From Escherichia phage pro147, in the sequence record NC_028896.1: a stretch of 32,675 bases of DNA. One strand, written 5' to 3'. The notes beneath the pieces were generated by a model, which worked only from the letters and a program-made list of their open reading frames with translations, did not search any database and was not told the DNA's origin. Position numbers and translations under genes: made by a program. Position 1 is the stretch's first letter; each line of letters starts with the position of its first letter. Positions 1 to 32,675 of the stretch are shown piece by piece.

Positions 1-13
1 GTCAGTTATTGGT
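1..13. repeat. Left copy of 13-bp terminal direct repeat gtcagttattggt; candidate prophage att core (attL/attR)
   Basis: Identical 13-mer at 1-13 and 32663-32675, flanking a complete P2-like gene set with the integrase adjacent to the right copy. The repeat may extend beyond the window. Confidence 0.55.
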
Positions 14-87
14 GACATTTTTTGATATCTAATCACATGAAATAAAAGGATTTATTTCTAGTCACGTCCACACATTGACCACATCGA

Positions 88-121
88 CAAAAAAGCCCCC
101 TCGACTGAGGGGGCTTTCTGT
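88..121. terminator. Intrinsic terminator hairpin downstream of ogr (bidirectional)
   Basis: Perfect 9-bp stem agccccctc (94-102) / gagggggct (107-115) with 4-nt loop gact. An A-run precedes it on the plus strand (a T-run on the minus strand after the stem) and ttctgttt follows on the plus strand. Confidence 0.7.
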
Positions 122-127
122 TTGTAA

Positions 128-346
128 TTACATCCACATAATTTGCTGCCCTGACGGCAATGGGTGCGGCCTTACGGCGCGGACTTCTCCCGGCTTGACG
201 ATGTATCGCTGTACCGACTCATAAGTGATGAACGTGGCACTACAATTCACGTTCTGGCACTGATGATAACGCTCTTTTGTCGTGTCAGTGATATAGCGGC
301 TTGTACGCGCATGTGCGGCATGCTGGCATAAAGGACAATGAAACAT
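128..346 (-). CDS. ogr: Late transcription activator Ogr (C4 zinc-finger), 72 aa
   Basis: Translation MFHCPLCQHAAHARTSRYITDTTKERYHQCQNVNCSATF... matches P2 Ogr as recalled. The internal ATG at 344-346 is preceded by AAGAGGTG (strong SD); the track ORF 128-409 carries a 21-aa N-terminal extension judged spurious. Confidence 0.9.
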   Translation of the reverse strand: MFHCPLCQHAAHARTSRYITDTTKERYHQCQNVNCSATFITYESVQRYIVKPGEVRAVRPHPLPSGQQIMWM

Positions 347-427
347 CGCGAGCACCTCTTCCGGTTTGGTTGATGGTGCCATTTTAGTTAAATTATCCTT
401 ATAAAACAAACAGATAAAATAAAAACA

Positions 428-1591
428 TCACTCATCATCTTCTGTTTCGTACTCCACATCAGAAAGCCTGACCTCAAGCTCCAGGGACGTCGTGAAGCCG
501 CTATTATTCAGAAAATGTGTCACCTTAGTGATTGTCCAGTCCTGCTCGTCTATGACGCGCTTAAAGCCTGACACTTTAACCGGTGTTTCCGTGTAAATAT
601 CTGCCCGACCGGTAGCCAGGCTGATGGAGAACTCCGCAACGCCCCGTTGCAGTTTATCCCACTTCGCCTGAGCGGCGCGCATGGCCTGCGCTTTCGTGGC
701 ATATACCGTGGTCAGGGCAAAAACATTGTCAGCCTCACCGGCCATATATTCACCTTCGCGCGCTTCCGGTACTTTTGGCTCTTTCTTCTGCCTGACCGGT
801 TTCGCTTTCGGGTGCTCCAGTGCGCGCAGGTGTTTTTCTTTCTTTTTGCGTTTCAGTTTTACCTTCTGCTTTTGCGGCTTCGGGTCTTTGGTGTGTAACC
901 ACTTTGCCGTTACGCCGGTATAGGCTCCACGGTCAGCAATCGCAAAATGATGACGGTCGCCGTCGCTGCGGGTGATGGTAATCTGCGGGATTTTTTTACC
1001 GCTGGCCGTCACCCCCTGCCCCGCTTTGAGAAACAGCAGTTTTCCCATTTTTACCGACACCTCACTGCCGTTGCGTTCAGCAAGACGGGTCAGGAATTTC
1101 GCATCAGACTCCTGCGACTGGTCGATGTGCGGGATTTTAATTCCTGCCAGTGACGGCGCGACACTGGCTTCCAGCCTGTTACGGGAGGCTATCGCCTCAA
1201 CAATCGCACCGAGCGTGGTGTCATGCCATGAGCCTTCCCGGCGGGAATTGAGCGTCCCGCGAAAATCTGCACTCCGGGCACGGATGGTGACCACATCCGG
1301 CGCGCCCCGGTGTTCAACCTCATCAACGGTAAATTTCCCTTTGCATACCAGGGCAAAACCTTTCCAGCCGATATACACCGTCAGGACAGCGCCACGAACC
1401 GGCAGCCCGACCTGCCCGTCGGCATCGTTCAGTTCAATATCAAGCTGGTCAGCCTCAAAGCCCCGGTTATCCGTCAGGGTCATGCTCATCAGACGGTCAC
1501 TGATATTGCCGGTAATATCTCTGCTGTCGAGCATCAGCATGTAATCCGGCGTCAGCGTACTGCCTGCATCAAATGTCAGCGTATCCAGCAT
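428..1591 (-). CDS. D: Tail protein D (late control gene D), 387 aa
   Basis: 387-aa ORF in the P2 gpD position between ogr and U; length identical to recalled P2 gpD; GC-rich backbone. Confidence 0.9.
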   Translation of the reverse strand: MLDTLTFDAGSTLTPDYMLMLDSRDITGNISDRLMSMTLTDNRGFEADQLDIELNDADGQVGLPVRGAVLTVYIGWKGFALVCKGKFTVDEVEHRGAPDVVTIRARSADFRGTLNSRREGSWHDTTLGAIVEAIASRNRLEASVAPSLAGIKIPHIDQSQESDAKFLTRLAERNGSEVSVKMGKLLFLKAGQGVTASGKKIPQITITRSDGDRHHFAIADRGAYTGVTAKWLHTKDPKPQKQKVKLKRKKKEKHLRALEHPKAKPVRQKKEPKVPEAREGEYMAGEADNVFALTTVYATKAQAMRAAQAKWDKLQRGVAEFSISLATGRADIYTETPVKVSGFKRVIDEQDWTITKVTHFLNNSGFTTSLELEVRLSDVEYETEDDE

Positions 1592-2070
1592 TATCCCGCC
1601 CCCGTCATACCCGTGAATTTAGTTGCCATACTGCCCGCCTTACCGATGAGCGATTCCGCCTGTTTACCGATATCGCCATAAAGCGCGGCCAGTGATTCAT
1701 CAACGCGGGTAAGTGACAGCGTAAAATCAATTTTCCGGGGTGTGCCGTCTGCAAAGAAAATACTCCCTGTTTCACTCACCCTGCTGATGACATACATGCC
1801 GTAAATCATGCCGGTGCCATCCAGCAACGGCCACGCCCGGCCTTCCTCTGCCATCAGCCTGAGCGTGGTCATCGTCAGCTTTCCGCCGGTCAGTTCGGGA
1901 TAAAGCACACCGGCAAGCGTGATGTTTTCCTCGCCAACACCGAGAAACTGAAAGGCATCCCGTTTACCGATACGGGAATTTGACGGCCAGCGATAATCTG
2001 ATTCACGCTGCATGGTCTGGTGTGGCAGCGTCTGGCGCATAAAAACAAACATACCTAACGCGAGCATCAT
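1591..2070 (-). CDS. U: Tail protein U, 159 aa
   Basis: 159-aa ORF, 1-nt overlap with D; position and length match P2 gpU. Confidence 0.9.
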   Translation of the reverse strand: MMLALGMFVFMRQTLPHQTMQRESDYRWPSNSRIGKRDAFQFLGVGEENITLAGVLYPELTGGKLTMTTLRLMAEEGRAWPLLDGTGMIYGMYVISRVSETGSIFFADGTPRKIDFTLSLTRVDESLAALYGDIGKQAESLIGKAGSMATKFTGMTGAG

Positions 2071-2084
2071 TTTTCGTCACCTCC

Positions 2085-4532
2085 TTAACCGTCATGCATC
2101 ATGCTGGCACGGGCGCGCGCACGTTTATCCCGCTCGTATTTTTCGAGCGCATCCTGTAACTGGCGGTCGAGCTGTGTCCCCGGCGCAGTACCACCCGTCA
2201 GGCTGATGTGATATTCGTTTTTACTCTGGTCCACATAAGAGCGGCCAGCCGGTGCCGTGACCGGCTGATAAGCCTGATAGCCTGCATAAGAGCTGGTCGC
2301 CGGAATATAACCACCGGTGCCATACGTGGCGGCATGAGTTCTGGCGGCGGTCTGGTCAAGTGTGTCTGACTCTTTGTTGATAACACCGAGTTTTTCCAGT
2401 ACCCAGTCAATACCGCTGCGCAGTTTGTTGAACGCATTAAGCGGCAGCATCAGCGCGTCAGCCAGTGCCTGCCCGAACATGACGCCCGTGTCACGGCAAC
2501 GGTTCAGGGTGTCCTGGGTGGCTTTAACCGGAGCAATCAGGTTTGTAAACCACTGCCACGCGGCCTGTAACTTTTCGCCCAGCCAGTCAAACATCGGTTT
2601 CAGTGGCGTGAACAGTTCCCCCACCGACGCAAAGGCCGCTTTCAGCCCTTCCACCACACCGCCAAAGAATGCGCTGACAGGCTCCCAGTATTTACGGATA
2701 AGCAACGCCCCGGCGACAATGGCAGCCACCACGGCCACAACCGGCCAGCTAATCGCCCCGATGGCCGTCATAACGGCACTACCAACCGTCGTGAAGATTG
2801 CCCCCATTGCGCCTGCTGCCGCGATGATGGCATTGATGCCGGTGATAACCGGCCAGGCTATGAGGCCAATGGCACCGATGACACCAGTCAGCGCCAGTGC
2901 ACCACCGACAATGATGCCGATGGTTGACGCCAGTGATTTGTTTTTCTGTATCCAGCCGTCGAGTTTTAACACATACTTTGTGGCCGTCTGCGTGAGATTA
3001 CGCAGTGCGCCTTCCTGTTGGTCAAACAGGTCAGTCCCCACCGCCTCATAAGCGGACTGAAACTCCTTAAAGTCACCGCCGAGGTTATCCTGCATGATAT
3101 TTACCAGCTCGGCGGTCTTCCCGTCTGAGGCTTTAAACGCAGCGGTCAGTTTGTCCAGCTTTCCGGTTGAGGCGGCAGTCATCAGCACGGCGGCGGCTGA
3201 GCTGGCCTCCTCCCCGAAAATAGTTTTCATGTATTCAGCCTGCTGGGCAGTACCGAGCCGGTTTTTCTCAAAACTGGCCTGCATTTCTTTCAGAATGGTA
3301 AATATTGGCCGGGTGTTTCCCTTGCTGTCTGAGGTTTTCACTCCAAGCTCTTTGAGTGCATCCCATGCTTTTCCCGTCGGTGCCTGCAGGCGGCTTAACA
3401 CGGCACGGCTTCCCGTCCCCGCCATTGAGCCTGTGATTTTTGCATCATGCAGCCCCCCGACCATTGCGGCGGTTTCTTCAATGCTGACACCGGCATTTTT
3501 TGCCACAGGTGCGGCATAGGTCAGCGCATCGCTCATGCCGTCAAAATCGGCGGCGGTTTTGTTCATCGTCATGGAGAGAACATCCCCGATATGAGCGACC
3601 TTATCGTTTGAAAGCTGAAAGGCGGATTTCATCCCCATCAGCAGGGCGGCGTTTTCTTCCATCGTGCGGCGGTTCGCCAGCGCCATATTCAGCGTGACCG
3701 GCGTTGCCGCCTGAATGGCATCAACATCCCCACCCGCTTTCGCGATGATTATCTGTGCACCGGCCGCATCATCCGCCGAGGCTGCGGTATTGTCACCGAG
3801 CTGGCGCGCCTGTTTGCGTAGTGCGGTCATTTCGGCGGAGTCTTTTGCCACTCCGAGCACGGCCTGCAATTCTGAGTTTTTCTGCGCAAACTCATAACCG
3901 GGCATCAGCAGCTTAACTCCGGCCATCGTTCCCGCCGCCGCAATCCCCACACCGGCAGCGCCCACCGAGGCCATATTTCCGGCCAGTTCCTTTCCGGCCT
4001 GATAACGCTGTTTGACTGCGTTAAGTTTTGCCTGTTGCGCACTGACACGCGCCAGCGCATCACGCTGACGGTTAAGCTGTGCGGTGGTTTCACTGATACG
4101 GTTTTTCAGTCCCTGCTCATCATGTGCAAGATTGCGGGTATTAATTCCCACAGCGGCCAGTTCCCGCTGCTGGCGTTTAACGGAATCCGTCAGGCGGTTA
4201 TATTTCGCCTGTAAGTCCTCCGCCGCACGCTTTGCGGATTCCAGCACTTTCGCCTGAGCACGGGTCGGACGTTCGGTGTTTTTAAACTGTGTGGCAAGGG
4301 CTTCGGCTTCCTGCCGAGCCTTTTCAAGTGCATGACCAGTCACGGCGAGCTGTGCACTGGTCTTGCGGAATCCCTCAATACGGGATGCGTGACCGTTCAG
4401 CTCGCGCAGTGATTTTTGTGTTTCCCGGATATCCCCCGACAGCGACTTGCTCGCTGTGCGGATGGATTTAAACGGGCGGGATGCCTGGTCAACAGCCCTG
4501 AGCAATACCTGTAATTTTACATTGTTACTCAT
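2085..4532 (-). CDS. T: Tail tape measure protein T, 815 aa
   Basis: 815-aa ORF with coiled-coil-like N-terminus and hydrophobic Ala/Gly-rich central segments typical of tape measure proteins; position between E/E' and U. Confidence 0.9.
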   Translation of the reverse strand: MSNNVKLQVLLRAVDQASRPFKSIRTASKSLSGDIRETQKSLRELNGHASRIEGFRKTSAQLAVTGHALEKARQEAEALATQFKNTERPTRAQAKVLESAKRAAEDLQAKYNRLTDSVKRQQRELAAVGINTRNLAHDEQGLKNRISETTAQLNRQRDALARVSAQQAKLNAVKQRYQAGKELAGNMASVGAAGVGIAAAGTMAGVKLLMPGYEFAQKNSELQAVLGVAKDSAEMTALRKQARQLGDNTAASADDAAGAQIIIAKAGGDVDAIQAATPVTLNMALANRRTMEENAALLMGMKSAFQLSNDKVAHIGDVLSMTMNKTAADFDGMSDALTYAAPVAKNAGVSIEETAAMVGGLHDAKITGSMAGTGSRAVLSRLQAPTGKAWDALKELGVKTSDSKGNTRPIFTILKEMQASFEKNRLGTAQQAEYMKTIFGEEASSAAAVLMTAASTGKLDKLTAAFKASDGKTAELVNIMQDNLGGDFKEFQSAYEAVGTDLFDQQEGALRNLTQTATKYVLKLDGWIQKNKSLASTIGIIVGGALALTGVIGAIGLIAWPVITGINAIIAAAGAMGAIFTTVGSAVMTAIGAISWPVVAVVAAIVAGALLIRKYWEPVSAFFGGVVEGLKAAFASVGELFTPLKPMFDWLGEKLQAAWQWFTNLIAPVKATQDTLNRCRDTGVMFGQALADALMLPLNAFNKLRSGIDWVLEKLGVINKESDTLDQTAARTHAATYGTGGYIPATSSYAGYQAYQPVTAPAGRSYVDQSKNEYHISLTGGTAPGTQLDRQLQDALEKYERDKRARARASMMHDG

Positions 4533-4952
4533 TCGTGTTTCCGCTTCGCCGGAGCGCCTTTTCGCGCCATGTGATGAGTTCGGTCAGGCTCATGGGATAC
4601 AGTTCTGATGGCGGCCAGTGAAATATCACTGCCACATCCGCCATCAGGTCATCGACCGAGAGATTTTTCGGGAACGTCACTGCACCGAGTTCGGCGACAA
4701 AAAACCGACCACCTTACCGGCCAGCGCCACAAGGTCAGGCAGTTCCAGCGCGGCGACTTCCTGCTCGGTCAGCATCGGTGCCGTCATGCGCGGCAGCACT
4801 TTAATCAGTGCATCGACTTCGGAGTTTGCGACCGCAGCCAGACTGACACCGCGCAGCGTCCCCGCACTGGGTTTCATCAGCGTGACCTGTTCGATAACCT
4901 GCTCACCACGCTTGACCGGATTGGTCAGGGTAATCACATTTTCTTTGTTCAT
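4525..4952 (-). CDS. E': Tail assembly chaperone E+E' fusion produced by -1 programmed ribosomal frameshift (about 142 aa)
   Basis: Manual translation of the -1 frame after the TTTTTTG slip site gives VAELGAVTFPKNLSVDDLMADVAVIFHWPPSELYPMSLTELITWREKALRRSGNTNE, then TAA at 4525-4527 overlapping the T start codon. Total 85+57 = 142 aa, the size recalled for P2 E+E'. Confidence 0.75.
4677..4952 (-). CDS. E: Tail assembly chaperone E, 91 aa
   Basis: 91-aa ORF immediately upstream of T; ends ...GFLSPNSVQ with the slippery heptamer T TTT TTG (minus-strand sense of 4698-4704) near its 3' end. Confidence 0.88.
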   Translation of the reverse strand: MNKENVITLTNPVKRGEQVIEQVTLMKPSAGTLRGVSLAAVANSEVDALIKVLPRMTAPMLTEQEVAALELPDLVALAGKVVGFLSPNSVQ

Positions 4953-5008
4953 GGTTTTCTCACTTCTTAATCAGGGTTAACCGGTCAGCCAGGCTGACCG
5001 GATGAAAA

Positions 5009-5527: not shown

Positions 5528-5539
5528 CGGTCAGGCTCC

Positions 5540-6989: not shown

Positions 6990-7799
6990 ATGACGCAAAT
7001 TAGTGAACGATGGAAGCACAACGGCATTACTAAAGGTTATTGCAATATTTGTGGAAAATATGACCTCCTCACAAAAGATCATGTTCCTCCAAAGTGTGCC
7101 ATAACCTTAGGTCCTGTTCTTCAGAAAACAGTTAGCGAATTTTTTGGTGTTCAGGAACCAGTTAAACCATTAAATGCTAAAAACGGCTCTTATTTCAAAA
7201 CCATTTGCAGCCACTGTAACAATAAGGTGTTAGGTGGACTCGACGTTGCAATTGAAAATGTAGCAAAGTCCTTTAAAGAACAGTTGAGTCAATATATGAA
7301 TGGTATGAGTGTATTTCCATTCATTAGAATACCTTTTGATAGCATATCTTTCACTAAGGCTATGATTGGACACGTGCTATCGGCAACTTCAGTTGAAGAT
7401 TGTAAAAAAGAACCCGTAGATAGCCCCTTCTATACACCTTTAAAAGATTATGTTTTGGGTAAGAATCCAAGTTTTGAGGAGACTCATGATATTTACTACT
7501 GGTTTTACCCACACAGAATGCACATATCAGCTCAAAGTGTAGCATTTATGAACGAAGGACATGTAGCATTTATTTGTGCTTTACATTTTTTTCCTATCGG
7601 TTTTATTATCACAATTAAAAATGAAGGAATATACCCTGCACACTCAACAAAATTAGAGCTTAAAGATAAATTCCTTACATTTAACATGACATCTGTAAAT
7701 TATGAGTATACGACATTTCCATTTGTAAATCTTAAGGGAAACCAAATGTATGCTATAAGCAACGGCCATACATGTGTGAGTTATCCAATAATTAAGTGA
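6990..7799 (+). CDS. Hypothetical 269-aa protein with N-terminal HNH-nuclease-like motif, in the P2 Z/fun cargo position; candidate anti-phage / superinfection-exclusion protein
   Basis: AT-rich ORF on the strand opposite all flanking late genes; ATG at 6990 preceded by GAGGGA. Motif string CNICGK...KDHVPPK...N...CSHCNN resembles the CxxC / DH / N / CxxC signature of HNH endonucleases. The C-terminal ~180 aa were not recognised. Confidence 0.6.
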   Translation: MTQISERWKHNGITKGYCNICGKYDLLTKDHVPPKCAITLGPVLQKTVSEFFGVQEPVKPLNAKNGSYFKTICSHCNNKVLGGLDVAIENVAKSFKEQLSQYMNGMSVFPFIRIPFDSISFTKAMIGHVLSATSVEDCKKEPVDSPFYTPLKDYVLGKNPSFEETHDIYYWFYPHRMHISAQSVAFMNEGHVAFICALHFFPIGFIITIKNEGIYPAHSTKLELKDKFLTFNMTSVNYEYTTFPFVNLKGNQMYAISNGHTCVSYPIIK

Positions 7800-22203: not shown

Positions 22204-22911
22204 CTATATATACTTCCTTTTTACTCTACTTAATTCTATCACTGATGAGGAGTGACAAAATGACAAATTAATAGTATCGATATAATCCAAAATTTGACTC
22301 TCAACCTCAATAAAAATATTTTTGGGCCCATTACTAATCGATATACCGATTTCATCCAAAACAGCCATCATTTTTCTCTGATGAGTTTTATATTTATAGT
22401 CTTTATTTTCCTCTGTAATATGTGCATTGGCTTCCTCAATAACACATTTGATTCTAGATATTATTTCTAGATAATCTCTCGAAACAGATATATCACCGCC
22501 TTGCGCTTCAGGGAACATAACCCTATACCATCTAAAAAAATTAACTTTCTCTGGATAGATGCTACTTCTTTTAGTTAACTCAGCACTTGCAAATTCTCTA
22601 AACATCGTCAGATGACTAGTGTAATTACTATTATTATTATTTTTAACTCCAGCGTTATATGTCATCAAAGCAATCATAACACCAAAAACGGTAACAAAAG
22701 TTGTTATAAGCCATCCAAACGCCTGAAAATACATTACTATACCAGATGTTTTTTCCGCAAAAAATTTTAAGCACTGGCTATCGAAGCATATATCACGCTC
22801 ATATAGCTTTTCATTCTGAATAGTTTCAAAAAGAGAAATTAGCGAAAAAATCAAAAAAAGAGCTGACGACACACCGACAATATATTTGAGAAGTCTAATA
22901 TTTGCATTCAT
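22204..22911 (-). CDS. Putative retron effector: 235-aa protein with two N-terminal transmembrane helices
   Basis: AT-rich ORF overlapping the 3' end of the upstream reverse-transcriptase gene by 4 nt. Hydrophobic segments YIVGVSSALFLIFSLISLF and VMYFQAFGWLITTFVTVFGVMIALMTY, followed by a ~140-aa soluble C-terminal domain. Confidence 0.7.
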   Translation of the reverse strand: MNANIRLLKYIVGVSSALFLIFSLISLFETIQNEKLYERDICFDSQCLKFFAEKTSGIVMYFQAFGWLITTFVTVFGVMIALMTYNAGVKNNNNSNYTSHLTMFREFASAELTKRSSIYPEKVNFFRWYRVMFPEAQGGDISVSRDYLEIISRIKCVIEEANAHITEENKDYKYKTHQRKMMAVLDEIGISISNGPKNIFIEVESQILDYIDTINLSFCHSSSVIELSRVKRKYI

Positions 22912-24182
22912 AATGGTTTTAAAGATGCCAATCTAGATTTAAAACACTCCAGTTTTTCTTTAAATGATTCAGAGCGAGTAAGAATAATCATCTTATATCT
23001 CGTCAAATCATATTTTCTTTTATACCAATGTTTATTTTGATTACCTTTCGAATACGACAACTCTAAACTTTTTATAGCTGCATCAATCACAGCAACATCT
23101 CTTTTAGATGGCATCGGTTTTATTGCCTGCAACTGTTTCTTGAATGATTCATATTTTTCATGCGCAACACGGCCAAGCTTATTCACTCTCCCCATACATC
23201 TATTGAATTCTTTTCTGTATGCAACACTTGTTTTTGTGTTATTTTTTGCCGCCAGTAATTTCAAATTATGTATAGATGCCCTGATTCTTTTGACTTCATC
23301 GGATGGTAGTCGAGGTGAGTCATAGTCAACTCTTAAACCATGTACTTTTATAGGTTCAGATGAACAGTGAAATATTTTAGTTTTGCGCTTATTTATCGGC
23401 AAGTCATGCTCAGAAAGCATCCTCTCTATATGGCTTTGCATTTGAGAAAAATCATAATTACTTATTTTAGATGACACGGTAATATCATCTACCAAACGCG
23501 TATAAACAAGTCCTTTCCTCTGCGCACGTCTTACCACATCCCCTTCAACAGCGAATAAACACAAAGTTGCTATATAGCTTGATGTTAAGGCCCCCTGTAC
23601 GACAAAATCATCCTTAGTACATATATCCACCAAGTATTCAAGAGCCTCATCCTTAATATGCAATATCTCCTCAAACACGCTCCTAACCAGATCTCTATGG
23701 ATATTATCGAAAAAATTACTTATATCCACCTTGAGAACTGTTTTTGCTCCACAATGAGCCTTTGCACATGAAACATAGTCACGTTTGACATTAGAATTTA
23801 AAACATCATTTTTACTGGGAACTGAACCAAACAAAAATGAAGGAAAAACAACCAATTCCTTAAAGATACGTTTATTAATTCTACTCTGTAATAATCTCAT
23901 TTTAGGATGCAGGGAGTAGACAATCCGTTTGCTTCCGTCAATTTTGGGAATTTCTTTTAGAGTATATTTCTCATCTAATGGTAATTCTGCAATAGCTTTA
24001 AGCTCTTCAACAGAAATCGATAAAGCCTTTGACAACTTTTCAAGTGTTGTGATAGGAGCATTGGATTTGCTGTATGGTTTAAATTTATCCATAAACATAC
24101 CATTCAAATTCAAAGTTACGTACGGTCTTCCCATACTCAAGGGTGGAACAGCAGAGATGCTTACATCAACAATTGTCAGCAA
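22908..24182 (-). CDS. Retron-type reverse transcriptase (start uncertain: TTG 24182, ATG 24134 or ATG 24098)
   Basis: Translation shows the RT motifs ...CAKAHCGAKTVLKVDISNFFDNI..., ...QGALTSSYIATLCL..., ...YTRLVDDITV... (YxDD box) and a VHGL motif resembling the retron VTG signature. AT-rich; the TTG at 24180-24182 is preceded by AGAGG. Confidence 0.8.
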   Translation of the reverse strand: MLTIVDVSISAVPPLSMGRPYVTLNLNGMFMDKFKPYSKSNAPITTLEKLSKALSISVEELKAIAELPLDEKYTLKEIPKIDGSKRIVYSLHPKMRLLQSRINKRIFKELVVFPSFLFGSVPSKNDVLNSNVKRDYVSCAKAHCGAKTVLKVDISNFFDNIHRDLVRSVFEEILHIKDEALEYLVDICTKDDFVVQGALTSSYIATLCLFAVEGDVVRRAQRKGLVYTRLVDDITVSSKISNYDFSQMQSHIERMLSEHDLPINKRKTKIFHCSSEPIKVHGLRVDYDSPRLPSDEVKRIRASIHNLKLLAAKNNTKTSVAYRKEFNRCMGRVNKLGRVAHEKYESFKKQLQAIKPMPSKRDVAVIDAAIKSLELSYSKGNQNKHWYKRKYDLTRYKMIILTRSESFKEKLECFKSRLASLKPL

Positions 24183-24423
24183 CAGCCTCTGCTATCTTTC
24201 GACCGTACGTAATGTCGTCGGCTACGGCACCATCGTAGTTGACGACGGTGGGGCCTCGCTGATAGGTCCATAGTGGACGCTTTTTTGTAAAAGCAAAAAC
24301 TGACAATTTAATGTTGTTGACTGCCGCATACCAAGCGAATCGCTGGTGCGCTAAGAATAATGCAACAAAAAAATAAGAATTTCAACCGGGTAACTGCAAG
24401 CCAGCGACATCGTTTAGCGCGCA
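24183..24423 (-). ncRNA. Candidate retron non-coding RNA (msr/msd) in the structured leader upstream of the RT gene
   Basis: GC-rich non-coding stretch between cos and the RT with a nested hairpin gtcgtc-gg-ctacg-gcaccat-cgtag-tt-gacgac (24214-24246) and a 12-nt inverted repeat ttacgtacggtc (24116-24127) / gaccgtacgtaa (24201-24212). Exact msr/msd boundaries could not be determined. Confidence 0.3.
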
Positions 24424-24442
24424 GTGCTTTCCCCGCCTCGCC
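24424..24442 (-). other. cos: Phage cos site: 19-nt cohesive-end sequence GGCGAGGCGGGGAAAGCAC (minus-strand sense)
   Basis: Plus strand 24424-24442 reads gtgctttccccgcctcgcc, the reverse complement of the P2 cohesive end as recalled; followed by ...ctgcgcgct as at the P2 left end. Adjacent GC hairpin ccgccc (24442-24447) / gggcgg (24456-24461) plus tttt. Confidence 0.75.
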
Positions 24443-24648
24443 CGCCCGCTTCATGGGGCGGTTTTAATGCAGTAGCATGACCACTCAACTAGCGCGCCAG
24501 TCCTGATGTCGCCAGGCAGTTATTGTTCTCTGACTTGCGTGCGCTTCGATGCAGAGTAATGCACTTCCTGAATTGCTCGCATTCGCATCGTTATCATGAT
24601 AGAAAACAGGTAGTTATTTGTGCGCAACTTAAGAAGAAATCACTAATT

Positions 24649-26193
24649 ATGAAAAAGATTTATGAATTAACTACTGGTAGAGCGCTTAAGTATTTTCTGC
24701 AGCATGATTCATACACTACTCTGGAGCTACCCAGTTATGTCGATTTTTCTTCCTTGCTTGAAGAAATCAACTCCGCGATAGATGAAGGTAAAATCAACTT
24801 CCAACCTGACTCCAAGTCATTGATGGGGAAGAATATAAATTACGAGGTTTTAGTCAGCAAAGATGGCTTATATAGCTGGCGACGAATAACACTAATTAAT
24901 CCTCTGTACTACGTGTATTTTTGTAAACTTATTACATCCCCTTCCAACTGGAAGGCTATAAAGAATAAATTTAGAGAGTTTGAGTCTAATGATCTTTTTT
25001 TATGCTCAAGTACCCCAGTGAGCAAAAAGAACACCTCAAACGTAGCTGCATCTGTTTTAAACTGGTGGGAAGATTTTGAACAAAAAAGTCTTTCATTGGC
25101 TCTTGAGTATGAGTTCATGTTCAGCACAGATATTTCAAACTTCTACCCTTCTATTTACACTCATAGCTTTGAATGGGTATTCATCTCAAAAGAAGAGGCC
25201 AAAAAGAAAGAAAATAACAATAACCCAGGACGATTGATTGACACTCATATCCAGATGATGATGAGTAATCAGACAAACGGAATACCATTGGGTAGTACGT
25301 TGATGGATACATTTGCCGAATTAATTTTAGGCGAAATTGATTTACAGCTAAGAAAAAAAACTGAAGAGCAAAAAATAACGGATTACAAAGTAGTTCGCTA
25401 CAGAGATGATTATCGAATATTTTCAAGCAGTAAAGATGATTTGGACAAAATCTCAAAGTGTTTGGTTGAGGTCTTAGGTGAGTTTGGGCTTGATTTAAAC
25501 TCAAGAAAAACAGAACTACATGACGACATCATTCTTCACTCTCTTAAATCAGCAAAAAAAGAATATATTATAGAAAGGTCGTTCAACTCCCTACAGAAAA
25601 TGTTGTATGCAATATATTTATTTTCTTTAAAACATCAAAACTCCAAAATTACAGTTAGATATTTAAATGATTTCTTGCGAAAATTATTTAGGAAGAAAAA
25701 GATCACAAATAGTGGGCATCAACTAGATGCAATGCTTGGAATTATTTCAAGCATCATGGCTAAAAACCCAACCACCTACCCAGTGGGAATGGCTATTTTC
25801 GCAAAACTCTTGACCTTCCTTTATGACGACGATGAACTCAAATTTGGCAAGTTACAACAACTTCATTGTAAACTAGGTAAACAACCAAATACTGAAATGT
25901 TAGATATTTGGTTTCAACGAGTTCAAGGGAAGATACACACACAATGGGAAGGCGATTACAAAACAGCCCTATGTCAACGCATAAATGATGAACTCAAGGG
26001 AAAAAAAACATTTACCATTGATGGCCTGTGGGATGTAGAGTGGATTCCGGGCTCAGCCAAAAGTAAAAACAAACAGAAAATACTATCAATTTTGAAAAAA
26101 ACAAAAATTGTGGATTTAGATGCATTCGAAGAAATGGATAATGATATTACACCAGAAGAAGTGAACTTATTCGACAAGGAACACAGCGCTTAA
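24649..26193 (+). CDS. Abi-P2-like (Abi/UG-class) reverse transcriptase, single-gene anti-phage system, 514 aa (alternative start ATG 24559)
   Basis: AT-rich ORF in the tin/old cargo position. RT motifs ...FSTDISNFYPSIYTH..., ...NGIPLGSTLMDTFAEL..., ...VVRYRDDYRIFS..., followed by a long C-terminal extension with no recognisable effector domain. No adjacent partner gene. Confidence 0.75.
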   Translation: MKKIYELTTGRALKYFLQHDSYTTLELPSYVDFSSLLEEINSAIDEGKINFQPDSKSLMGKNINYEVLVSKDGLYSWRRITLINPLYYVYFCKLITSPSNWKAIKNKFREFESNDLFLCSSTPVSKKNTSNVAASVLNWWEDFEQKSLSLALEYEFMFSTDISNFYPSIYTHSFEWVFISKEEAKKKENNNNPGRLIDTHIQMMMSNQTNGIPLGSTLMDTFAELILGEIDLQLRKKTEEQKITDYKVVRYRDDYRIFSSSKDDLDKISKCLVEVLGEFGLDLNSRKTELHDDIILHSLKSAKKEYIIERSFNSLQKMLYAIYLFSLKHQNSKITVRYLNDFLRKLFRKKKITNSGHQLDAMLGIISSIMAKNPTTYPVGMAIFAKLLTFLYDDDELKFGKLQQLHCKLGKQPNTEMLDIWFQRVQGKIHTQWEGDYKTALCQRINDELKGKKTFTIDGLWDVEWIPGSAKSKNKQKILSILKKTKIVDLDAFEEMDNDITPEEVNLFDKEHSA

Positions 26194-26338: not shown

Positions 26339-26358
26339 ATGGTCAACGTGGTGACAGA

Positions 26359-26619
26359 TTATGGGCACGCGTGAAGGTAGAAATATGGACGGTTGGGATT
26401 ATTGATTTCTCCCATACGGCTGCAGTTATCACTGACGATCTCAGTCCCTCCGACCAACTCGTAGAGGGTCAGATTCTCTTTGACCATAATTTGTAAACAA
26501 TAGCCATCAGCCGCAGACTCTTGCACGAGTACAATGGCGGAACCGGACGCATAGCTAGTAATGTATGCATTAGTCATAATGACATGCTTCCAAAGCAAGA
26601 TCGCCACGCAGTTCCGCAT
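26359..26619 (-). CDS. Hypothetical 86-aa protein downstream of A (position of P2 orf91)
   Basis: ORF in the track only; sits where P2 carries orf91 but no sequence similarity could be verified from memory. Confidence 0.3.
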   Translation of the reverse strand: MRNCVAILLWKHVIMTNAYITSYASGSAIVLVQESAADGYCLQIMVKENLTLYELVGGTEIVSDNCSRMGEINNPNRPYFYLHACP

Positions 26620-26680
26620 GATCCATCAGTTGCTGATACCAACCATCAAATGGAAGCAAAATCAACCATTTCAATCATTT

Positions 26681-28957
26681 TTATATGTTTGTTGAGAATC
26701 CCGGCCACTCATCAGCGACCGGATACGTGAATTTTTCCCCGTCATAATTTACGGTCGCGCCACGCGCCAGCGCCTCAAGCTCCCATCGCTGTGGCCTGAT
26801 ACCGTTCTGAGCAAGGTCAACGCGGATACGGGTAATTTGCATTCGTTCCGACCGGGTCAGTCTGGCCGATGGCGCTATTTCATGCGGTTTTAACGGGCTT
26901 CCGTTTCTTTGCTGACGGTTTGGTCTTCTCAGACCGTGTTTTAATGCACCTCTGAGCGCCCTCACGACCTCCTGGTCATTCCATTCGATAACACCGTCAT
27001 CTACCAGATTAAGCACTGCTGCGGCGTGCTCAGAAGGTGTGGGAGCCGGTAACGAAGTATCACCACCGGTGAGCTTTCCACAGTTATTGACAGGACTCCG
27101 AGGCGCGGCGATGCCGCTTTTTAAAGTCAAAGGCTCAACGACCAGCACTTTCGGAACAATGCGCCAGTCCGTCGTTCTGGTGATATGAATATGACGCGCG
27201 CCGAGATGCGGCGCGTAAATGCCGACCACTCTCTCGACTTCTTCCTCGTACTCGTTAACTTCATCCGACGGACTACGGGCGACCCTGACAGTCTGACAAT
27301 CGCGCGGGACATTTGCCCCACCCTGCGCGCTGATATACAGCGCAAAATCGCCACTGTCTGCGGCAGCGCGTGCAGCCTCGACGCGTTCGTCAAACTCATC
27401 AGCAATGCTGACGCCGCGAGGTAATTTGCGTAGTTCACGGTAAGCCCCCATTGTCGGCAGGCCAACCGTTTTAAATTGCGGAATGCGCCACGTTGACGCC
27501 CATGCGGTAACAGCCGCGGCAGTGTCTTTCAGCGGCCTGCCGGTATCGTTATCGAGCTGACCATCCAGTGCATAGCCGTCGATGTTTTTTGAAATGTATT
27601 TCGCGATATACCCCGCAGCACCGCCCCGGTTAAGGTGTTTTGCCTGAAAACGGTTTCGCGCGGCTCCTCTTTCGTCGCCATCCTCTTTGAGCGCATAGCG
27701 ACGCATGATTTCGATAATCTGGTTACGCTGGCGCGGATTACAAAAAAGCATCATATGCCAGTGCGGCGTTCCGTCGTGGTGTGGCTCGACGACACGCAAA
27801 CCGTAGACCTGTAAATCATTATCCTTGAATGCCGTGCGCATCAGGCTCCAGATACGGCAGAGATAACGCTGCGCATCCTTTGGATTAAATGCCTCATCGT
27901 TCCAGCCGTGATTTAGCTGGACGGTTTTACTTTCGCCTTTTCTGACCTGACGTGTCGGGTGATACTTTGACGGCGCGGTCAGCGTGATAAACATCCCCAC
28001 ATCACCCTCTGCTGCGGCGTAACGCTCAATACCGGCAATGGTGTTCATCAGCTCCATCCGGCGAATTTCAGGATTAGAAATACTGCCCATCACCTTACTG
28101 ATAAGGTCGATGCGCTCGCCGGTTTCCCTGTTTTCAAGGTCACACGATTTAAGAAATTCCAGATTTGCCTGGCGGCGCGCACGCACATCACGAATGGCAT
28201 GTTTACTGGCATAAGGAGAACGGTCTTTATTGACCTCCCCGACAGCTATCAGTAACGCCTCATGCCAGCGCATACGTTGGCCTTTAAGCTGATGAGTCCA
28301 CCACTCATCGTTAAACAGGCGGGCAATGGCAGAATATGCCTGCCTCGTGGTCATCTGTCCTTTACGGTATTTTTTCCAGTAGAGCGGGGAAATATTGAAA
28401 GCACGTGCAGCGCCAGCAACATGACCATAGAGGTGAGCCTGCGCCTCATCCGTAAACAGCGATTCTTTTTCGCCATGTGCATCAACCCAGGCATCGCAGA
28501 GTTCCTCATACATCATGAAAAGCTGCGATGAGATACGGGCAGCAAACTTTTTCAGCTCCTTGTCATTCATTCCCGGCAGGCGCGCATAGTGGTCACGCTC
28601 TGCCAGAAACAGCAACGACGCGTCGGTGTTCATTTCATGGCGCTGATTCACACGCTCAATGCGCGGCCATAAACGACGCTGAAAAGTGGATGTGAGGAAA
28701 TAAAACCCGTGCACCGGGCTTTTATTGCGCCGGATGTAGTCATAACGTGAAGTAAACAGCGAGCGCAAAAAGTAAGGCAGGCGGTTAATCGTGGATAAAA
28801 CACCTTGCACCTGACGCATCTCGTCACGTGTAAGGGGTCTTTCGCGCCCGACAGCCTCGCGTGGCGCGTTCCATGCATAAGCACCGGTAAACGTCTTACC
28901 GGTGCCTGCGGCAAATGCTGACGGAGGGACAAAACGCCCGGAGGCTTTAACGGCCAT
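26681..28957 (-). CDS. A: Replication initiation protein A (rolling-circle nickase), about 758 aa from ATG 28957
   Basis: Translation from MAVKASGRFVPPSAFAAGTGK... matches the recalled P2 gpA N-terminus. The track ORF starts 14 codons upstream at a TTG (28999). The last few codons lie at the boundary with the cargo island. Confidence 0.9.
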   Translation of the reverse strand: MAVKASGRFVPPSAFAAGTGKTFTGAYAWNAPREAVGRERPLTRDEMRQVQGVLSTINRLPYFLRSLFTSRYDYIRRNKSPVHGFYFLTSTFQRRLWPRIERVNQRHEMNTDASLLFLAERDHYARLPGMNDKELKKFAARISSQLFMMYEELCDAWVDAHGEKESLFTDEAQAHLYGHVAGAARAFNISPLYWKKYRKGQMTTRQAYSAIARLFNDEWWTHQLKGQRMRWHEALLIAVGEVNKDRSPYASKHAIRDVRARRQANLEFLKSCDLENRETGERIDLISKVMGSISNPEIRRMELMNTIAGIERYAAAEGDVGMFITLTAPSKYHPTRQVRKGESKTVQLNHGWNDEAFNPKDAQRYLCRIWSLMRTAFKDNDLQVYGLRVVEPHHDGTPHWHMMLFCNPRQRNQIIEIMRRYALKEDGDERGAARNRFQAKHLNRGGAAGYIAKYISKNIDGYALDGQLDNDTGRPLKDTAAAVTAWASTWRIPQFKTVGLPTMGAYRELRKLPRGVSIADEFDERVEAARAAADSGDFALYISAQGGANVPRDCQTVRVARSPSDEVNEYEEEVERVVGIYAPHLGARHIHITRTTDWRIVPKVLVVEPLTLKSGIAAPRSPVNNCGKLTGGDTSLPAPTPSEHAAAVLNLVDDGVIEWNDQEVVRALRGALKHGLRRPNRQQRNGSPLKPHEIAPSARLTRSERMQITRIRVDLAQNGIRPQRWELEALARGATVNYDGEKFTYPVADEWPGFSTNI

Positions 28958-29222
28958 ATGAGCCAAAAGCCTCTGAACAACGCCTGCTGAGTTGCTCAAC
29001 CTGCGCGTTTAAATCAGCAAAAGACTTTGCGCTTCCGGTCAGAATATCGTGATGCATCAGGCCGGAAACGAGCTGGCTTAATTTCGGGTAATAACCAACC
29101 ACCGCCAGCCATTCCTGACCGGCGTTTTTACCGCTTTCCGCTCTCTTTTTCTCGTGGAGAATAAACTGAAAGCTGTCACTGGTAACGACATAACGTTTGC
29201 CAATTTCAATACGAATGCTCAT
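28947..29222 (-). CDS. Early-operon hypothetical protein (P2 orf83 position), 91 aa
   Basis: ATG-initiated ORF immediately upstream of A, overlapping its start by 11 nt; syntenic with P2 orf83. Confidence 0.7.
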   Translation of the reverse strand: MSIRIEIGKRYVVTSDSFQFILHEKKRAESGKNAGQEWLAVVGYYPKLSQLVSGLMHHDILTGSAKSFADLNAQVEQLSRRCSEAFGSYGR

Positions 29223-29443
29223 GCCATTCTCCGGTAATGTTTGTTTTTTGCTTCAAAGACTGACTGACAGGAAACACAACGCGTGGCTGACGGATAAGCC
29301 GCACGACGGGCAGCAGGTATTGGCGCGTCACACTCTTCGCAAACCAGCGCAGAAGCACCGCAATGTTTTACTCTTGCCGCGTTAATCTGGCGCTCCAGTA
29401 ATTCAGCCTGTTGTTCCTGAATAAAATCTACGTTGTCCGGCAT
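29219..29443 (-). CDS. DksA/TraR-family C4 zinc-finger protein (P2 orf82 position), 74 aa
   Basis: Translation contains CGASALVCEECDAPIP...ATRCVSCQ, a four-cysteine pattern characteristic of TraR/DksA-type zinc fingers. Confidence 0.75.
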   Translation of the reverse strand: MPDNVDFIQEQQAELLERQINAARVKHCGASALVCEECDAPIPAARRAAYPSATRCVSCQSVFEAKNKHYRRMA

Positions 29444-29745
29444 TACCAGCTCCTTTTGTCGTTAAGTTTTTTAAATTCATCAGCGCAATAGCTGGCAATT
29501 TCTGTCGTTAATTTCGTCAGTTCATCCACGGAGGAGATTTGCTTGTGAAATACAGCGCGTTTAACAAGTAAATTGACCACATCAGACAGGAGATTTAATT
29601 CGTTCTGATAAATCGCGATAACAGACTCAGTTATTTCGCGTTTTTCTTTATCAAGACCCAGTTGAATAAGAGACAAATCGCCATTTTTCATAACAGCGAT
29701 TTTTAAGGCGTTATTCAGTAATACAACTGAATGAGAACAGGACAT
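29443..29745 (-). CDS. Early-operon hypothetical protein (P2 orf81 position), 100 aa
   Basis: ORF in the P2 early operon; the ATG at 29743-29745 overlaps the upstream gene's stop (TGATG). Confidence 0.65.
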   Translation of the reverse strand: MSCSHSVVLLNNALKIAVMKNGDLSLIQLGLDKEKREITESVIAIYQNELNLLSDVVNLLVKRAVFHKQISSVDELTKLTTEIASYCADEFKKLNDKRSW

Positions 29746-29969
29746 CAAAGCACCTCCCCGCGAGATAATCCGATATTGTGAAATTTTTCCGACTCCTGAC
29801 TGAGCAGCTCGACTATCTCCACGCGGGATAACTCCGCCTTTGTGATGTGGCGAATCATGGCGTCAAGATGAGAAGAAAAGCGCGTCGCTGCGTCGGCCTG
29901 TGCTTCGGTTCTGGCCTGTTGCAGCAGTAATGCGTATTTACCGCACTGATTTTCAGAAACTGTATGCAT
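29745..29969 (-). CDS. Early-operon hypothetical protein (P2 orf80 position), 74 aa
   Basis: ATG-initiated ORF between B and orf81, translationally coupled downstream. Confidence 0.65.
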
Positions 29970-30032
29970 GACTTTCTCCAGGCAAAAAGAAGCCCCGCAC
30001 GATTAAGTGCGTTAAAAACTCTGGTTAATTAC

Positions 30033-30533
30033 TTAATGCAGATATTGCTCTGGTTTTACCGACGTCAGAATTGTCGGTGCATACTCAAACAGACTGAATA
30101 ATTCACGTAATGCACGGAATAAAGCATCACGCCAGTAACATGATTCTTCATTAATTCGCCAGTATGGCTGGTTAAATTCTTTTTCAGTCAATCCGGCATG
30201 CATAAATAAAGTACGGCGCTGACTGACTGTTAAAAAACTAATATATGCATACTCACTTGCGCCAACCTGACGGCGTTTTGAGAATGCGCCACGCAATTCA
30301 TCAATTGCACATACCAGTCGTTCACGTTCGACGTCGTTCATTTCTTCAAAACGCATCGTTGCGTGACGCTGTTTTAACTGCGCATGGAAGCAAACCGTTA
30401 GCCGTTCACGTTCCATCATCTGATTATAATAATCGCATGTCTCCTGCCAGCGAGGGACGGCCAGATGCTTACCAATTATCCGGCGCATAGCTGCTGGCTG
30501 TTTTTCAACAAGATTGAGCGTCATCACTGTCAT
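30033..30533 (-). CDS. B: Replication protein B (helicase loader), 166 aa
   Basis: 166-aa ORF; length and position match P2 gpB. Confidence 0.88.
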   Translation of the reverse strand: MTVMTLNLVEKQPAAMRRIIGKHLAVPRWQETCDYYNQMMERERLTVCFHAQLKQRHATMRFEEMNDVERERLVCAIDELRGAFSKRRQVGASEYAYISFLTVSQRRTLFMHAGLTEKEFNQPYWRINEESCYWRDALFRALRELFSLFEYAPTILTSVKPEQYLH

Positions 30534-30700
30534 TTCCAGACCCTCCGGCTTTTCAGAAAGGTCAGAGCCTTCTTTAACGGACTCTGTTTTTTGGTGCGGA
30601 TAATGATTCCCTTACGCCCCTTACCGTGGGTAATGGTGAAGTCAATCGCCCTTGGGCTTTCGTTACGCAATAACTGAGCAATACAACGAGGCTCGTTCAT
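30530..30700 (-). CDS. Small early protein (P2 orf78 position), 56 aa from ATG 30700
   Basis: The internal ATG at 30698-30700 is preceded by AAGGTGGAAAGG (SD) and avoids overlap with cox; the track ORF (to 30790) would overlap cox by 80 nt. Confidence 0.6.
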   Translation of the reverse strand: MNEPRCIAQLLRNESPRAIDFTITHGKGRKGIIIRTKKQSPLKKALTFLKSRRVWK

Positions 30701-30710
30701 CCTTTCCACC

Positions 30711-31067
30711 TTAAGCCGCACGGCCATGTCTTGATTTGCTGTAACTAATGCGATTTTTCCAGTCATGCCATTCTGTCGGAGCTTCATCAACTAGCTGGGC
30801 TGCGTACTTGTCCCACTCACGGCGATTAATCCATAACTCAGCATGACCGCCCGGCTTTAATGGGTCCGTCATATAAAAGGCTGGTAACTTGCCTGCTTTC
30901 GCCATTTCAGCAACAGCGCGAGGCGTCTTACCGATGTAAAGAGCAAAACCCTCTTTCGAGAGCAAATCCGACGGTGCGGCTGCAAGTTTGATGTCACATT
31001 TTTTACTTTTTGTGAGATCAGATACTTTTTCTCCAACATCGTTATTCATTTCTGATCCAATACTCAT
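30711..31067 (-). CDS. cox: Cox-like excisionase / early-promoter repressor (start uncertain: 31067 or 31049)
   Basis: Translation contains ...ALYIGKTPRAVAEMAKAGKLPAFYMTDP..., resembling the P2 Cox helix-turn-helix region (...KLIGKSTGAVRRMIDKGKLPVIDMTDP...). Divergent from C. The ATG at 31065-31067 is preceded by GAGGA. Confidence 0.75.
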   Translation of the reverse strand: MSIGSEMNNDVGEKVSDLTKSKKCDIKLAAAPSDLLSKEGFALYIGKTPRAVAEMAKAGKLPAFYMTDPLKPGGHAELWINRREWDKYAAQLVDEAPTEWHDWKNRISYSKSRHGRAA

Positions 31068-31097
31068 TTTGATATCCTCAACTTTGGTGCCATTCAA

Positions 31098-31171
31098 CCA
31101 GAGCTATTTGAAGCCGCTCTGCGTTGTTCTGGTGTGTCGCATACAACATAAATTACGAGATACGACAATTC
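31098..31171. promoter_or_regulatory. Immunity switch region: face-to-face early (Pe) and repressor (Pc) promoters/operators between cox and C
   Basis: Intergenic region between the divergent cox and C genes, as in P2; operator repeats not resolved by eye. Confidence 0.45.
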
Positions 31172-31483
31172 ATGTCAAATACACAAATCACATCTCAAGC
31201 AGAGAAACTCGCACTTATTCGGGAATCAGAAAGAATGACAAGGAAGCAAGTTGCTGAATTAACTGGAATTAACTACAACACCTATGCTGGATATGAGCAG
31301 GGAAAAGTAAAGATGTCTTTTGACGCAGGTATGAAATTTTTCAAGCCAGAAAGATTTCGCAAGTACCGTGACTGGTTCATGTTTGATGAAACTGATCCCG
31401 CTGGCGGACAAATAGCCCCGGCGCTCGCGCACATTGGGCAAGACTCAACAACCTTGCACCACTCAGACCAAAAGACTGGCTGA
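31172..31483 (+). CDS. C: Immunity repressor C, 103 aa
   Basis: Translation from internal ATG 31172 (MSNTQITSQAEKLALIRESERMTRKQVAELTGINYNTYAGYEQGK...) carries an N-terminal HTH and the C-terminal ...GQIAPALAHIGQDSTTLHHSDQKTG resembling P2 C. Confidence 0.85.
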   Translation: MSNTQITSQAEKLALIRESERMTRKQVAELTGINYNTYAGYEQGKVKMSFDAGMKFFKPERFRKYRDWFMFDETDPAGGQIAPALAHIGQDSTTLHHSDQKTG

Positions 31484-31576
31484 CGATTTATTCAGCATAT
31501 GTGTGCAGTAAATGTACGAAAGAAAATTGCATTAATTTTCAAGTAGTAGAAGTAAACAGCGTCATCGGAGGGCTTT

Positions 31577-32572
31577 ATGTCTATTAAAAAGCTCGATGAT
31601 GGTCGTTATGAAGTGGACGTCAGACCGCAGGGTGCAGATGGAAAACGTATCAGGCGGAAATTTAAAACTAAAGGTGAAGCTCAAGCATTCGAACGTCATG
31701 TGCTGGTTAACTACCACAACAAAGAGTGGCTGGAGAAGCCAGCCGACCGCCGAACTCTTACAGAGTTGTTAGGCAGATGGTGGATATATCACGGAAAATC
31801 ACATGAGCGTGGAAATATTGAACGGGGGCGTTTGACGACAATAATCGCCAAATTTGCAGAAATGGGAGTGTCCAGAGCTGACCAGTTAACAAAGAAAACG
31901 ATAACTGATTATCGAGTTGTAATGATGAACGATGGTCTAAAACCAGCCAGCGTAAATCGGCATCTGGCAATAATGAGCGGGATGTTCACCAAGTTAATTG
32001 ACGCCGGTGAATACCACTCTCACAACCCGTTCCGTGAGGTTAAGCGGTTACGTGAAGCTGTTACAGAAATGGCTTTTTTGTCCAGTGAAGAGATTACGCG
32101 GCTGTTATCCATGCTTGATGGTGATGAGTTAAATGCAACTCTGGTCTGCCTTTCTACTGGTGGACGCTGGAGTGAAGTGTCTAATTTGAAAGCTGAACAC
32201 ATCATTAACCAGATGGTTACGTTTATGAAAACTAAAAACGGAAAGCGCAGGACAATTCCCGTTTCGCAGGACCTGATTAAAAGGATCAAGACCAAAAATT
32301 CAGGCAGGCTTTTTAATGCCAGTTACTACAAAGTGCGTAACGCTCTCAGGGAAGTAAAACCCGATTTACCTGACGGACAAGCAGTACATGTTTTGAGGCA
32401 TACATTTGCCACACATTTTATAATGAATGGAGGTAACATAATCACATTGCAGCGCATCCTGGGTCATTCTAACATTCAGCAAACTATGACCTACGCACAC
32501 TTTGCACCGGATTTCTTACAAGATGCTGTGACTCTTAACCCAGTGTCAGGAATGTCCATAATGCGTCCATAA
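31577..32572 (+). CDS. int: Tyrosine integrase, 331 aa
   Basis: Terminal gene next to the right repeat; C-terminal catalytic region contains ...RHTFATHFIMNGGNIITLQRILGHSNIQQTMTYAHF... (R...HxxR...Y tyrosine recombinase pattern). Confidence 0.92.
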   Translation: MSIKKLDDGRYEVDVRPQGADGKRIRRKFKTKGEAQAFERHVLVNYHNKEWLEKPADRRTLTELLGRWWIYHGKSHERGNIERGRLTTIIAKFAEMGVSRADQLTKKTITDYRVVMMNDGLKPASVNRHLAIMSGMFTKLIDAGEYHSHNPFREVKRLREAVTEMAFLSSEEITRLLSMLDGDELNATLVCLSTGGRWSEVSNLKAEHIINQMVTFMKTKNGKRRTIPVSQDLIKRIKTKNSGRLFNASYYKVRNALREVKPDLPDGQAVHVLRHTFATHFIMNGGNIITLQRILGHSNIQQTMTYAHFAPDFLQDAVTLNPVSGMSIMRP

Positions 32573-32662
32573 ACCAGAGTTAACTAGAGCCAATTGAAGC
32601 GATATGAGTAATTTAACTAATTGTAATACAACAGAAAATACCGCTACGGCGGGGGCTACCAA

Positions 32663-32675
32663 GTCAGTTATTGGT
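32663..32675. repeat. Right copy of 13-bp terminal direct repeat gtcagttattggt; candidate att core
   Basis: Identical to bases 1-13; lies 91 bp downstream of the integrase stop. Confidence 0.55.

Follow-up and report, generated by a model that had tools for sequence, protein, structure and literature searches.

The DNA analyzed here (NC_028896.1, Escherichia phage pro147; 32,675 nucleotides [nt], called the window in its full length) is, at a probability that we put at about 95%, an intact prophage of the P2 family that is delimited by a 13-bp attachment (att) core at the start codon of the host gene pflA and that arose by conservative attP × attB integration by a tyrosine integrase. Window bases 1 to 13 and 32663 to 32675 both read GTCAGTTATTGGT, as an earlier note made from the sequence alone had claimed, and no further exact copy is present within the 32,675 nt. 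The gap between the stop codon of the integrase gene int (open reading frame [ORF] 31577 to 32572) and the right core copy is 90 nt, which agrees, within counting convention, with the 91 bp given in that note. A 13-mer repeat alone is little proof, because exact repeats of 13 to 14 nt also arise elsewhere in the window (two unrelated exact 14-mers each occur twice); its evidential weight comes from its location at both termini and from the junction comparisons described below. A repeat scan of the window revealed no longer direct repeats flanking the prophage that could serve as alternative boundaries, and no tRNA was found in the window. The suggestion that the repeat would lie within a tRNA or another conserved gene is thus borne out in its second part, the site being the protein-coding 5' end of pflA, and not in its first.

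Empty, occupied, and free-phage attachment sites

The whole window is 100% identical (0 mismatches over 32,675 nt) to positions 4481975 to 4514649 of the E. coli M23314 chromosome (NZ_CP133916.1), where pflB lies on the left (upstream) and pflA on the right (downstream). Since host DNA flanks both sides in M23314, the worry that the repeat might be a cutting artifact with no host DNA outside it is removed. A 53-mer (20 + 13 + 20 bases) rebuilt without the prophage and without one repeat copy matches the empty MG1655 site exactly; the 13-mer is present once at this empty site and twice in lysogens, at both host junctions. Free phage S164 and a 32.3-kb IMG/VR contig likewise have a single copy in their attP, where int, 90 nt, the core, the P arm, and ogr follow one another contiguously. 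The junctions in strain EC9 are ...ggagaaacaccgcaAT GTCAGTTATTGGT gacatttttt (left) and ...gggggctaccaA GTCAGTTATTGGT cgcattcactcc (right). The earlier proposal that the repeat is a core duplicated in attL and attR is thereby supported, with the 13-mer found once in attB, once in attP, and twice in lysogens.

The arrangement is widespread. The int-att end of the window has matches in 440 chromosomal or plasmid records of E. coli, with pflA always the feature under the match. The junction that joins int, leader, core, and pflA is found in 405 of 5,426 complete E. coli genomes (7.5%); equally many genomes contain 80% or more of the int-att query, with pflA under every match listed, and in genomes without the junction the alignment to the attR query starts only at the core. 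A near-identical int module is found in 18 records of isolated phages, among them vB_YpM_46, which was isolated as a virion and whose Int is at least 99% identical, and S164, 11W, and pro483 have the same int-att module at 96 to 98% nucleotide identity. Many phages isolated on Yersinia pestis EV76 also carry this int together with an attP core that matches the E. coli pflA start (MT374857 [vB_YpM_46], ON146439 [VB-YPM-4], OR545056, and others); their E. coli-type core echoes the published remark that the natural host of phage L-413C is probably E. coli.

The window is oriented opposite to the P2 convention, and we follow P2 naming, with attL on the int side and attR on the ogr side. The core copy at 1 to 13 belongs to attR (P-O-B'), and in the chromosome the promoter and Shine-Dalgarno sequence native to pflA and the first two bases (AT) of its start codon lie 5' of it. 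The copy at 32663 to 32675 belongs to attL (B-O-P'); it comprises the former start codon G and pflA codons 2 to 5 (S V I G) and runs on into pflA. Int would recombine attP with an attB that consists of the same 13 bp, i.e., pflA codons 2 to 5 and the start-codon base before them. Conservative strand exchange within the 13-bp identity, in which the exact crossover would fall, would leave one core copy at each prophage end, and prophage loss would restore ...GCAATGTCAGTTATTGGTCGC... at attB.

Other origins of the terminal repeat fit these observations poorly. A circular phage genome opened at attP, with 13 bases repeated as a terminal overlap and no host DNA outside, would look alike from inside the record, and the circular attP form with a single 13-mer does exist; however, the segment of the same length, without a mismatch, between pflB and pflA in M23314 speaks against such a record artifact, as do the termini of P2-type virions and records, which are cos, here internal (24424 to 24442). 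This alternative, which the earlier note had kept, is not needed, and we regard it as very improbable; under either record origin the 13-mer is the att core, and the biology is unchanged. Next to no credit is given to terminal 13-mers that arose by chance, for which the other short repeats in the window might be cited, or by a target-site duplication due to a transposase. Hundreds of independent genomes have this 13-mer at the same position; a single copy exists beforehand in the free phage, as a duplication would not predict, and another in the empty site; and a tyrosine integrase and arm sites adjoin it, with no transposase. At the level of sequence, the signature attB × attP → attL + attR is complete, excluding chance, transposase duplication, and record overlap, and nothing found contradicts the integration model.

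A further alternative refines the integration model rather than replacing it, and we consider it rather probable: the functional att site would be larger than the 13-bp repeat, with crossover in only a part of it and with core-type half-sites for Int reaching into the nonidentical flanks. Tyrosine recombinase half-sites flank an overlap region of 6 to 8 bp, and the identity extends imperfectly beyond 13 bp: on the right, four more bases match past two mismatches, and on the left, three more match with a 1-nt gap (attB CAATGTCAGTTATTGGTCGCATT versus attP CAA-GTCAGTTATTGGTGACATT); unoccupied sites align to the attR query with one gap, from query base 286. Short dyads are visible as well (ACCAA-N8-TTGGT in attP, CAAT-N7-ATTG in attB). 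Nevertheless, the perfect identity is strictly 13 bp in all of the junctions examined, with mismatches directly beside it (left, T/A; right, GA/CG). The earlier concern that the true core might be longer or shifted is not sustained in this sense, the 13 bp lying at the position of the P2 core relative to the arm sites.

Integration module and relationship to P2

The int gene (31577 to 32572, + strand) encodes a tyrosine integrase with the Pfam domains Int_N and Phage_integrase. Compared with P2 Int, its arm-binding N terminus is almost identical and its core-binding segment has diverged; the catalytic residues R...HxxR...H...Y are present and aligned with those of P2 Int. Two putative Int-binding sites of the P' arm, the direct repeats tGTCCATAA and cGTCCATAA, lie 11 bp apart at 32551 to 32572 (GTCCA at 32554 and 32565) and overlap the 3' end of int, and two putative sites of the P arm, the direct repeats cGTCCACA and tGACCACA, also 11 bp apart, are found at 64 to 85 (repeats at 66 and 77) and are identical to the annotated P arm of P2. 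With attP reassembled from the two window ends, both pairs fit the arm-site consensus tgTGGaCa reported for P2-type integrases (PMC3448106). In attP, the core GTCAGTTATTGGT lies about 90 bp from the P' arm sites on one side and about 50 bp from the P arm sites on the other; the P-P' spacing of 174 bp is exactly that of P2, and the 13-bp core, unrelated in sequence, occupies the place of the 27-bp P2 core, AAAAAATAAGCCCGTGTAAGGGAGATT.

Next to the core, bases 14 to 36 form a phage-specific stretch unlike P2, which, joined to the host ATG and core, makes an 8-codon remnant ORF (MSVIGDIF followed by a stop). P2 homology restarts at about base 37, within the annotated integration host factor (IHF) site of P2, and there is essentially no difference from P2 in the ogr-side arm, half of that IHF site, and the ogr terminator. 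The terminator, a predicted bidirectional intrinsic one at 92 to 117, terminates transcription of ogr and the F operon on the - strand; on the + strand, it would halt host transcription coming from the pflB/pflA promoter. Int, IHF, and Cox would bind to this att region, as we infer from the comparison with P2. The pattern of attP is that predicted by a module swap, which appears to have changed the core specificity and kept the intasome architecture. The swapped module comprises int, C, cox, the core, and only about 24 bp past the core; P2's own P arm, ogr terminator, and 174-bp spacing are retained.

The earlier note also held that the core differs from that of P2 and that a different integration site is implied; both points proved right, the site being the pflA start codon. 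P2 itself (NC_001895) integrates at MG1655 position 2165238 (PMC3448106 Table 1), and its att type is not the one met here. WPhi and L-413C are likewise heteroimmune P2 relatives with the int/C/cox module and core swapped and, hence, another chromosomal site (MG1655 4104392; PMC3448106), although they have their own core, site, and immunity class. Among more distant relatives, an Int that is 70% identical to the present one adjoins pyrE (upstream) and not pflA (IMGVR_UViG_3300021966_000302, about 2494 to 2720). The point at which site specificity switches within this Int clade therefore lies between about 70% and about 76% identity.

The pflA site is known from two P2-like phages. PhiD145 and PhiD160 integrate at MG1655 position 950293, the PhiD145 site having been identified previously (Nilsson et al. 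2011, PMC3448106 Table 1). That table uses the older (pre-2013) K-12 numbering, in which the phage 186 site in ileY is 2783812 versus 2785762 to 2785837 for ileY in NC_000913.3. In the latter version, pflA is located at 950340 to 951080 (complement) and the 13-bp core at 951066 to 951078. With an offset between the two versions that we take to be 777 bp here, 950293 becomes 951070, inside the 13-bp core. The integration and immunity type of the prophage is probably that of PhiD145 and PhiD160 and thus already known; it is a weak point of this assignment that it derives from a published coordinate and the 777-bp offset, the PhiD145-related record AJ298559 covering late genes O to X only. Both phages are reportedly treated in Karlsson et al. 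2006 (J Bacteriol) and Mandali et al. 2010 (Virology 408:64). They share with the prophage their character as P2-type E. coli phages, an attB coordinate inside this core, and a P2-type integrase with P2-type arm repeats (tgTGGaCa), whereas the Ec48-type retron, the AbiP2 gene, and the unfamiliar ORF described below are strain-specific cargo. In the open-access literature, nothing on pflA and P2-like integration was found beyond the PhiD145 coordinate in PMC3448106.

The gene content is that of a complete P2-type phage. By megablast, the window is about 96% identical to P2 and its relatives over bases 37 to 22100 and over the replication genes. A tblastn search with 42 P2 proteins recovered 37 in P2 order, 33 of them at 90 to 100% identity. 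The products of Q, P, O, N, M, L, X, Y, K, lysA, lysB, lysC, R, S, V, W, J, I, G, FI, FII, E, T, U, D, ogr, orf78, B, orf80 to orf83, and A are full length at 90 to 100% identity; H matches P2 H in part, but its ORF is intact at 681 amino acids. Among the 42 proteins sought, only those of the nonessential orf30, fun(Z), orf91, tin, and old were missing, these genes being replaced or absent here. The genes int, C, and cox have diverged (53, 48, and 35% identity to P2, respectively). The late-gene activator gene ogr (131 to 346, - strand), which encodes an Ogr/Delta zinc finger protein 98.6% identical to P2 Ogr, is followed by the P2 late region D to Q (428 to 22161), with all tail, lysis, head, and packaging genes full length and with orf30 and fun(Z) absent. 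The cos site at 24424 to 24442 is an exact match to the 19-nt cohesive end of P2 and lies within the window, which is therefore in prophage and not in virion permutation. The early and replication genes A, orf83 to orf80, B, and orf78 (26681 to 30700, - strand) have 95 to 100% identity to P2. They are followed by cox (30711 to 31067, - strand; Pfam Phage_Cox), which encodes the excisionase and Pc repressor, and by C (31172 to 31483, + strand), which encodes the helix-turn-helix immunity repressor and is the probable first gene of a C-int-(pflA) transcription unit. The full P2-type set from ogr to int that the earlier note had described is thus confirmed by the tblastn matches and the exact cos, and because the gene set is complete and phages with an Int at least 99% identical have been isolated as virions, the prophage is probably viable.

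pflA downstream of the integrated prophage

Integration separates pflA from its native promoter, ribosome-binding site, and ATG, and the start codon on the int side reads AAG instead of ATG. The native promoter, Shine-Dalgarno sequence, and ATG remain at the ogr-side junction, where they head the 8-codon remnant ORF that is followed by the terminator at 92 to 117. On the int side, the phage encodes a 20-codon leader, MSNLTNCNTTENTATAGATK (32604 to 32663, + strand), which starts at the first ATG past an in-frame TGA, ends with AAG, and is in frame with pflA codon 2; the leader-PflA N terminus begins MSNLTNC. PflA of lysogens has 265 amino acids in the annotation of the Prokaryotic Genome Annotation Pipeline (PGAP), of which residues 21 to 265 are identical to the 245-residue crystallized enzyme (3C8F), and the lysogens listed have an intact pflA with a full-gene annotation. 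Terminator prediction gave none on the + strand from C through int to pflA, and for this reason read-through from C-int is proposed. An operon of C and int that is active in the lysogen, as P2 biology would have it, would read through into pflA, where the phage ATG and 20-codon leader would replace the lost start of the gene; by analogy with P2, C-int read-through probably drives pflA.

In all relatives located beside pflA (at least six variants from five genera), the ATG position is unchanged and the 20-codon leader is open. The leader is kept next to an Int of 80% identity in Scandinavium (three species) and Pseudescherichia vulneris, next to an Int of 76% identity in Rahnella, and, as protein fragments only, in Citrobacter portucalensis and one metagenomic fragment. 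In the four lineages represented by DNA, the pflA frame has 0 stops versus 2 to 5 in each of the other frames, which suggests that the frame, but not the peptide sequence, has been under selection to stay open. A protein search with the leader and the PflA N terminus returned almost only short fragments, with two extra leader variants, and most of the IMG/VR loci of Int relatives end at the int stop codon, few giving downstream sequence; among these loci, no attP form of the Rahnella or Scandinavium lineage was recovered. The int-leader sequence of the Scandinavium type has no megablast match in E. coli genomes.

From this we draw, as a tentative reading, that the leader has been maintained by selection and that pflA has come under C-int. 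If so, about 7.5% of E. coli strains would make a phage-tagged PflA under phage transcriptional control, a lysogenic rewiring of central anaerobic metabolism. Several points weigh against it. In sequence shuffles, an open 20-codon frame arises by chance in 13 to 27% of cases per lineage, and the lineages are related; substitutions in the leader show no bias toward the third codon position. The leader ATG is preceded by a weak Shine-Dalgarno sequence, and the only promoter-like match nearby (32535 to 32562), a single and weak one, is no better than chance in the promoter scan. The P2 stretch equivalent to the leader is a Cox-binding region, and the leader DNA probably carries Cox-binding sites as in P2, which could account for the conserved length and 5' sequence. 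The Rahnella-type attR, moreover, keeps an ATG at the native pflA start, after GGGGG(A/T)CA, in addition to the upstream 20-codon in-frame leader. Because this native-position ATG is kept, the leader is not strictly needed there for a start codon; the junction would weaken a simple replacement of the start codon or point to translation through the leader for another reason.

Some of these points also favor the opposite explanation, by which integration inactivates or silences pflA, the open leader frame is a coincidence in Cox- and IHF-binding DNA, and lysogens tolerate the loss: the absence of third-position bias, the chance frequency of an open frame in each lineage, the weak Shine-Dalgarno sequence, and the position of the leader in P2's Cox-binding stretch would all be expected from it. 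We nevertheless consider silencing unlikely. The position of the ATG, the 20-codon length, and the open frame are retained across the variants and genera mentioned, the other frames being full of stops; pflA is intact and fully annotated in the lysogens listed; and no terminator is predicted between int and pflA. Pyruvate formate-lyase depends on PflA for its activation during anaerobic growth, and yet the insertion is carried by 7.5% of complete E. coli genomes. Leader-PflA would, on this view, be expressed and active as an enzyme.

Insertion at the 5' end of a gene has a precedent in dusA-specific islands and prophages, which supply a replacement 5' end and leave the original 5' end at the far boundary (PMC4482086). 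These elements are the closest precedent for the pflA prophage, as they also insert into the first codons of a conserved protein-coding gene and provide an in-frame start; they differ in having an unrelated integrase family and target, and in the pflA prophage the start codon alone is replaced, with a 20-residue extension and no substitution of an enzyme structural element. At icd, e14 and phage 21 are also inserted inside a conserved metabolic gene, with a phage-supplied gene end that keeps the ORF (PMC3603311); in e14 and phage 21, however, it is the 3' end that is replaced, and promoter and start codon are left undisturbed. No description of lysogenic rewiring by a phage-tagged PflA was found in the searchable literature, and, of all aspects of this prophage, only the leader-pflA fusion may be undescribed.

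Cargo genes and implications of the prophage

The cargo loci coincide with P2 hotspots near cos and at Z/fun, which are known as sites of defense genes (PMC13586616). An Ec48-family (type IV) retron lies between cos and the portal gene Q (22204 to 24182, - strand); it consists of a reverse transcriptase gene (22908 to 24182; PADLOC RT_IV, E value of 1e-176) and a gene for a two-transmembrane (2TM) effector (22204 to 22911; 2TM_IV, E value of 4e-85), which PGAP names "retron Ec48 family effector membrane protein." The msr/msd RNA of the retron should lie just upstream of the reverse transcriptase gene, in the stretch 24183 to 24420; it gave no match in an Rfam scan of the window at gathering thresholds. 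An AbiP2-type defense reverse transcriptase gene (24523 to 26193, + strand, with the PGAP start at 24649; PADLOC AbiP2, E value of 5e-160) is found in place of P2 old/tin, and cos is flanked by two different defense systems based on reverse transcriptases. At the Z/fun hotspot, a 269-amino-acid ORF (6990 to 7799, + strand) lies between the tail sheath gene and the tail fiber assembly gene G; Pfam and PADLOC gave no match to this ORF, its only match being phrog_21495, a function-unknown family, and it is a candidate for an uncharacterized defense or conversion gene. Between the AbiP2 gene and gene A, an 86-amino-acid ORF (26359 to 26619, - strand) matches phrog_13272, another function-unknown family, and is without PGAP annotation in the identical chromosomal copy.

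Gene A also appears at an unexpected place in public records. In several RefSeq E. coli chromosomes (NZ_CP086662.1, NZ_CP139803.1, NZ_CP119719.1, NZ_CP151000.1, and others), record bases 1 to 430 correspond to window positions 28528 to 28957 on the minus strand, and base 1 of these records is the first base of prophage replication gene A (28957). This looks like an artifact of automatic start-fixing, in which the phage replication gene was taken instead of dnaA.

As far as integration is concerned, the analysis confirms one intact P2-type prophage with correctly placed boundaries, an ordinary finding that is already known. For annotation, it accounts for the 265-amino-acid "pflA" that prophage callers and PGAP give unexplained, and it identifies the site as a PhiD145-type attB. 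The fusion of leader and pflA, if true, would be an easily testable case of a prophage-host gene fusion, and, if it is expressed in the way proposed here, a common prophage would control the transcription and alter the N terminus of an enzyme essential for mixed-acid fermentation in the gut.

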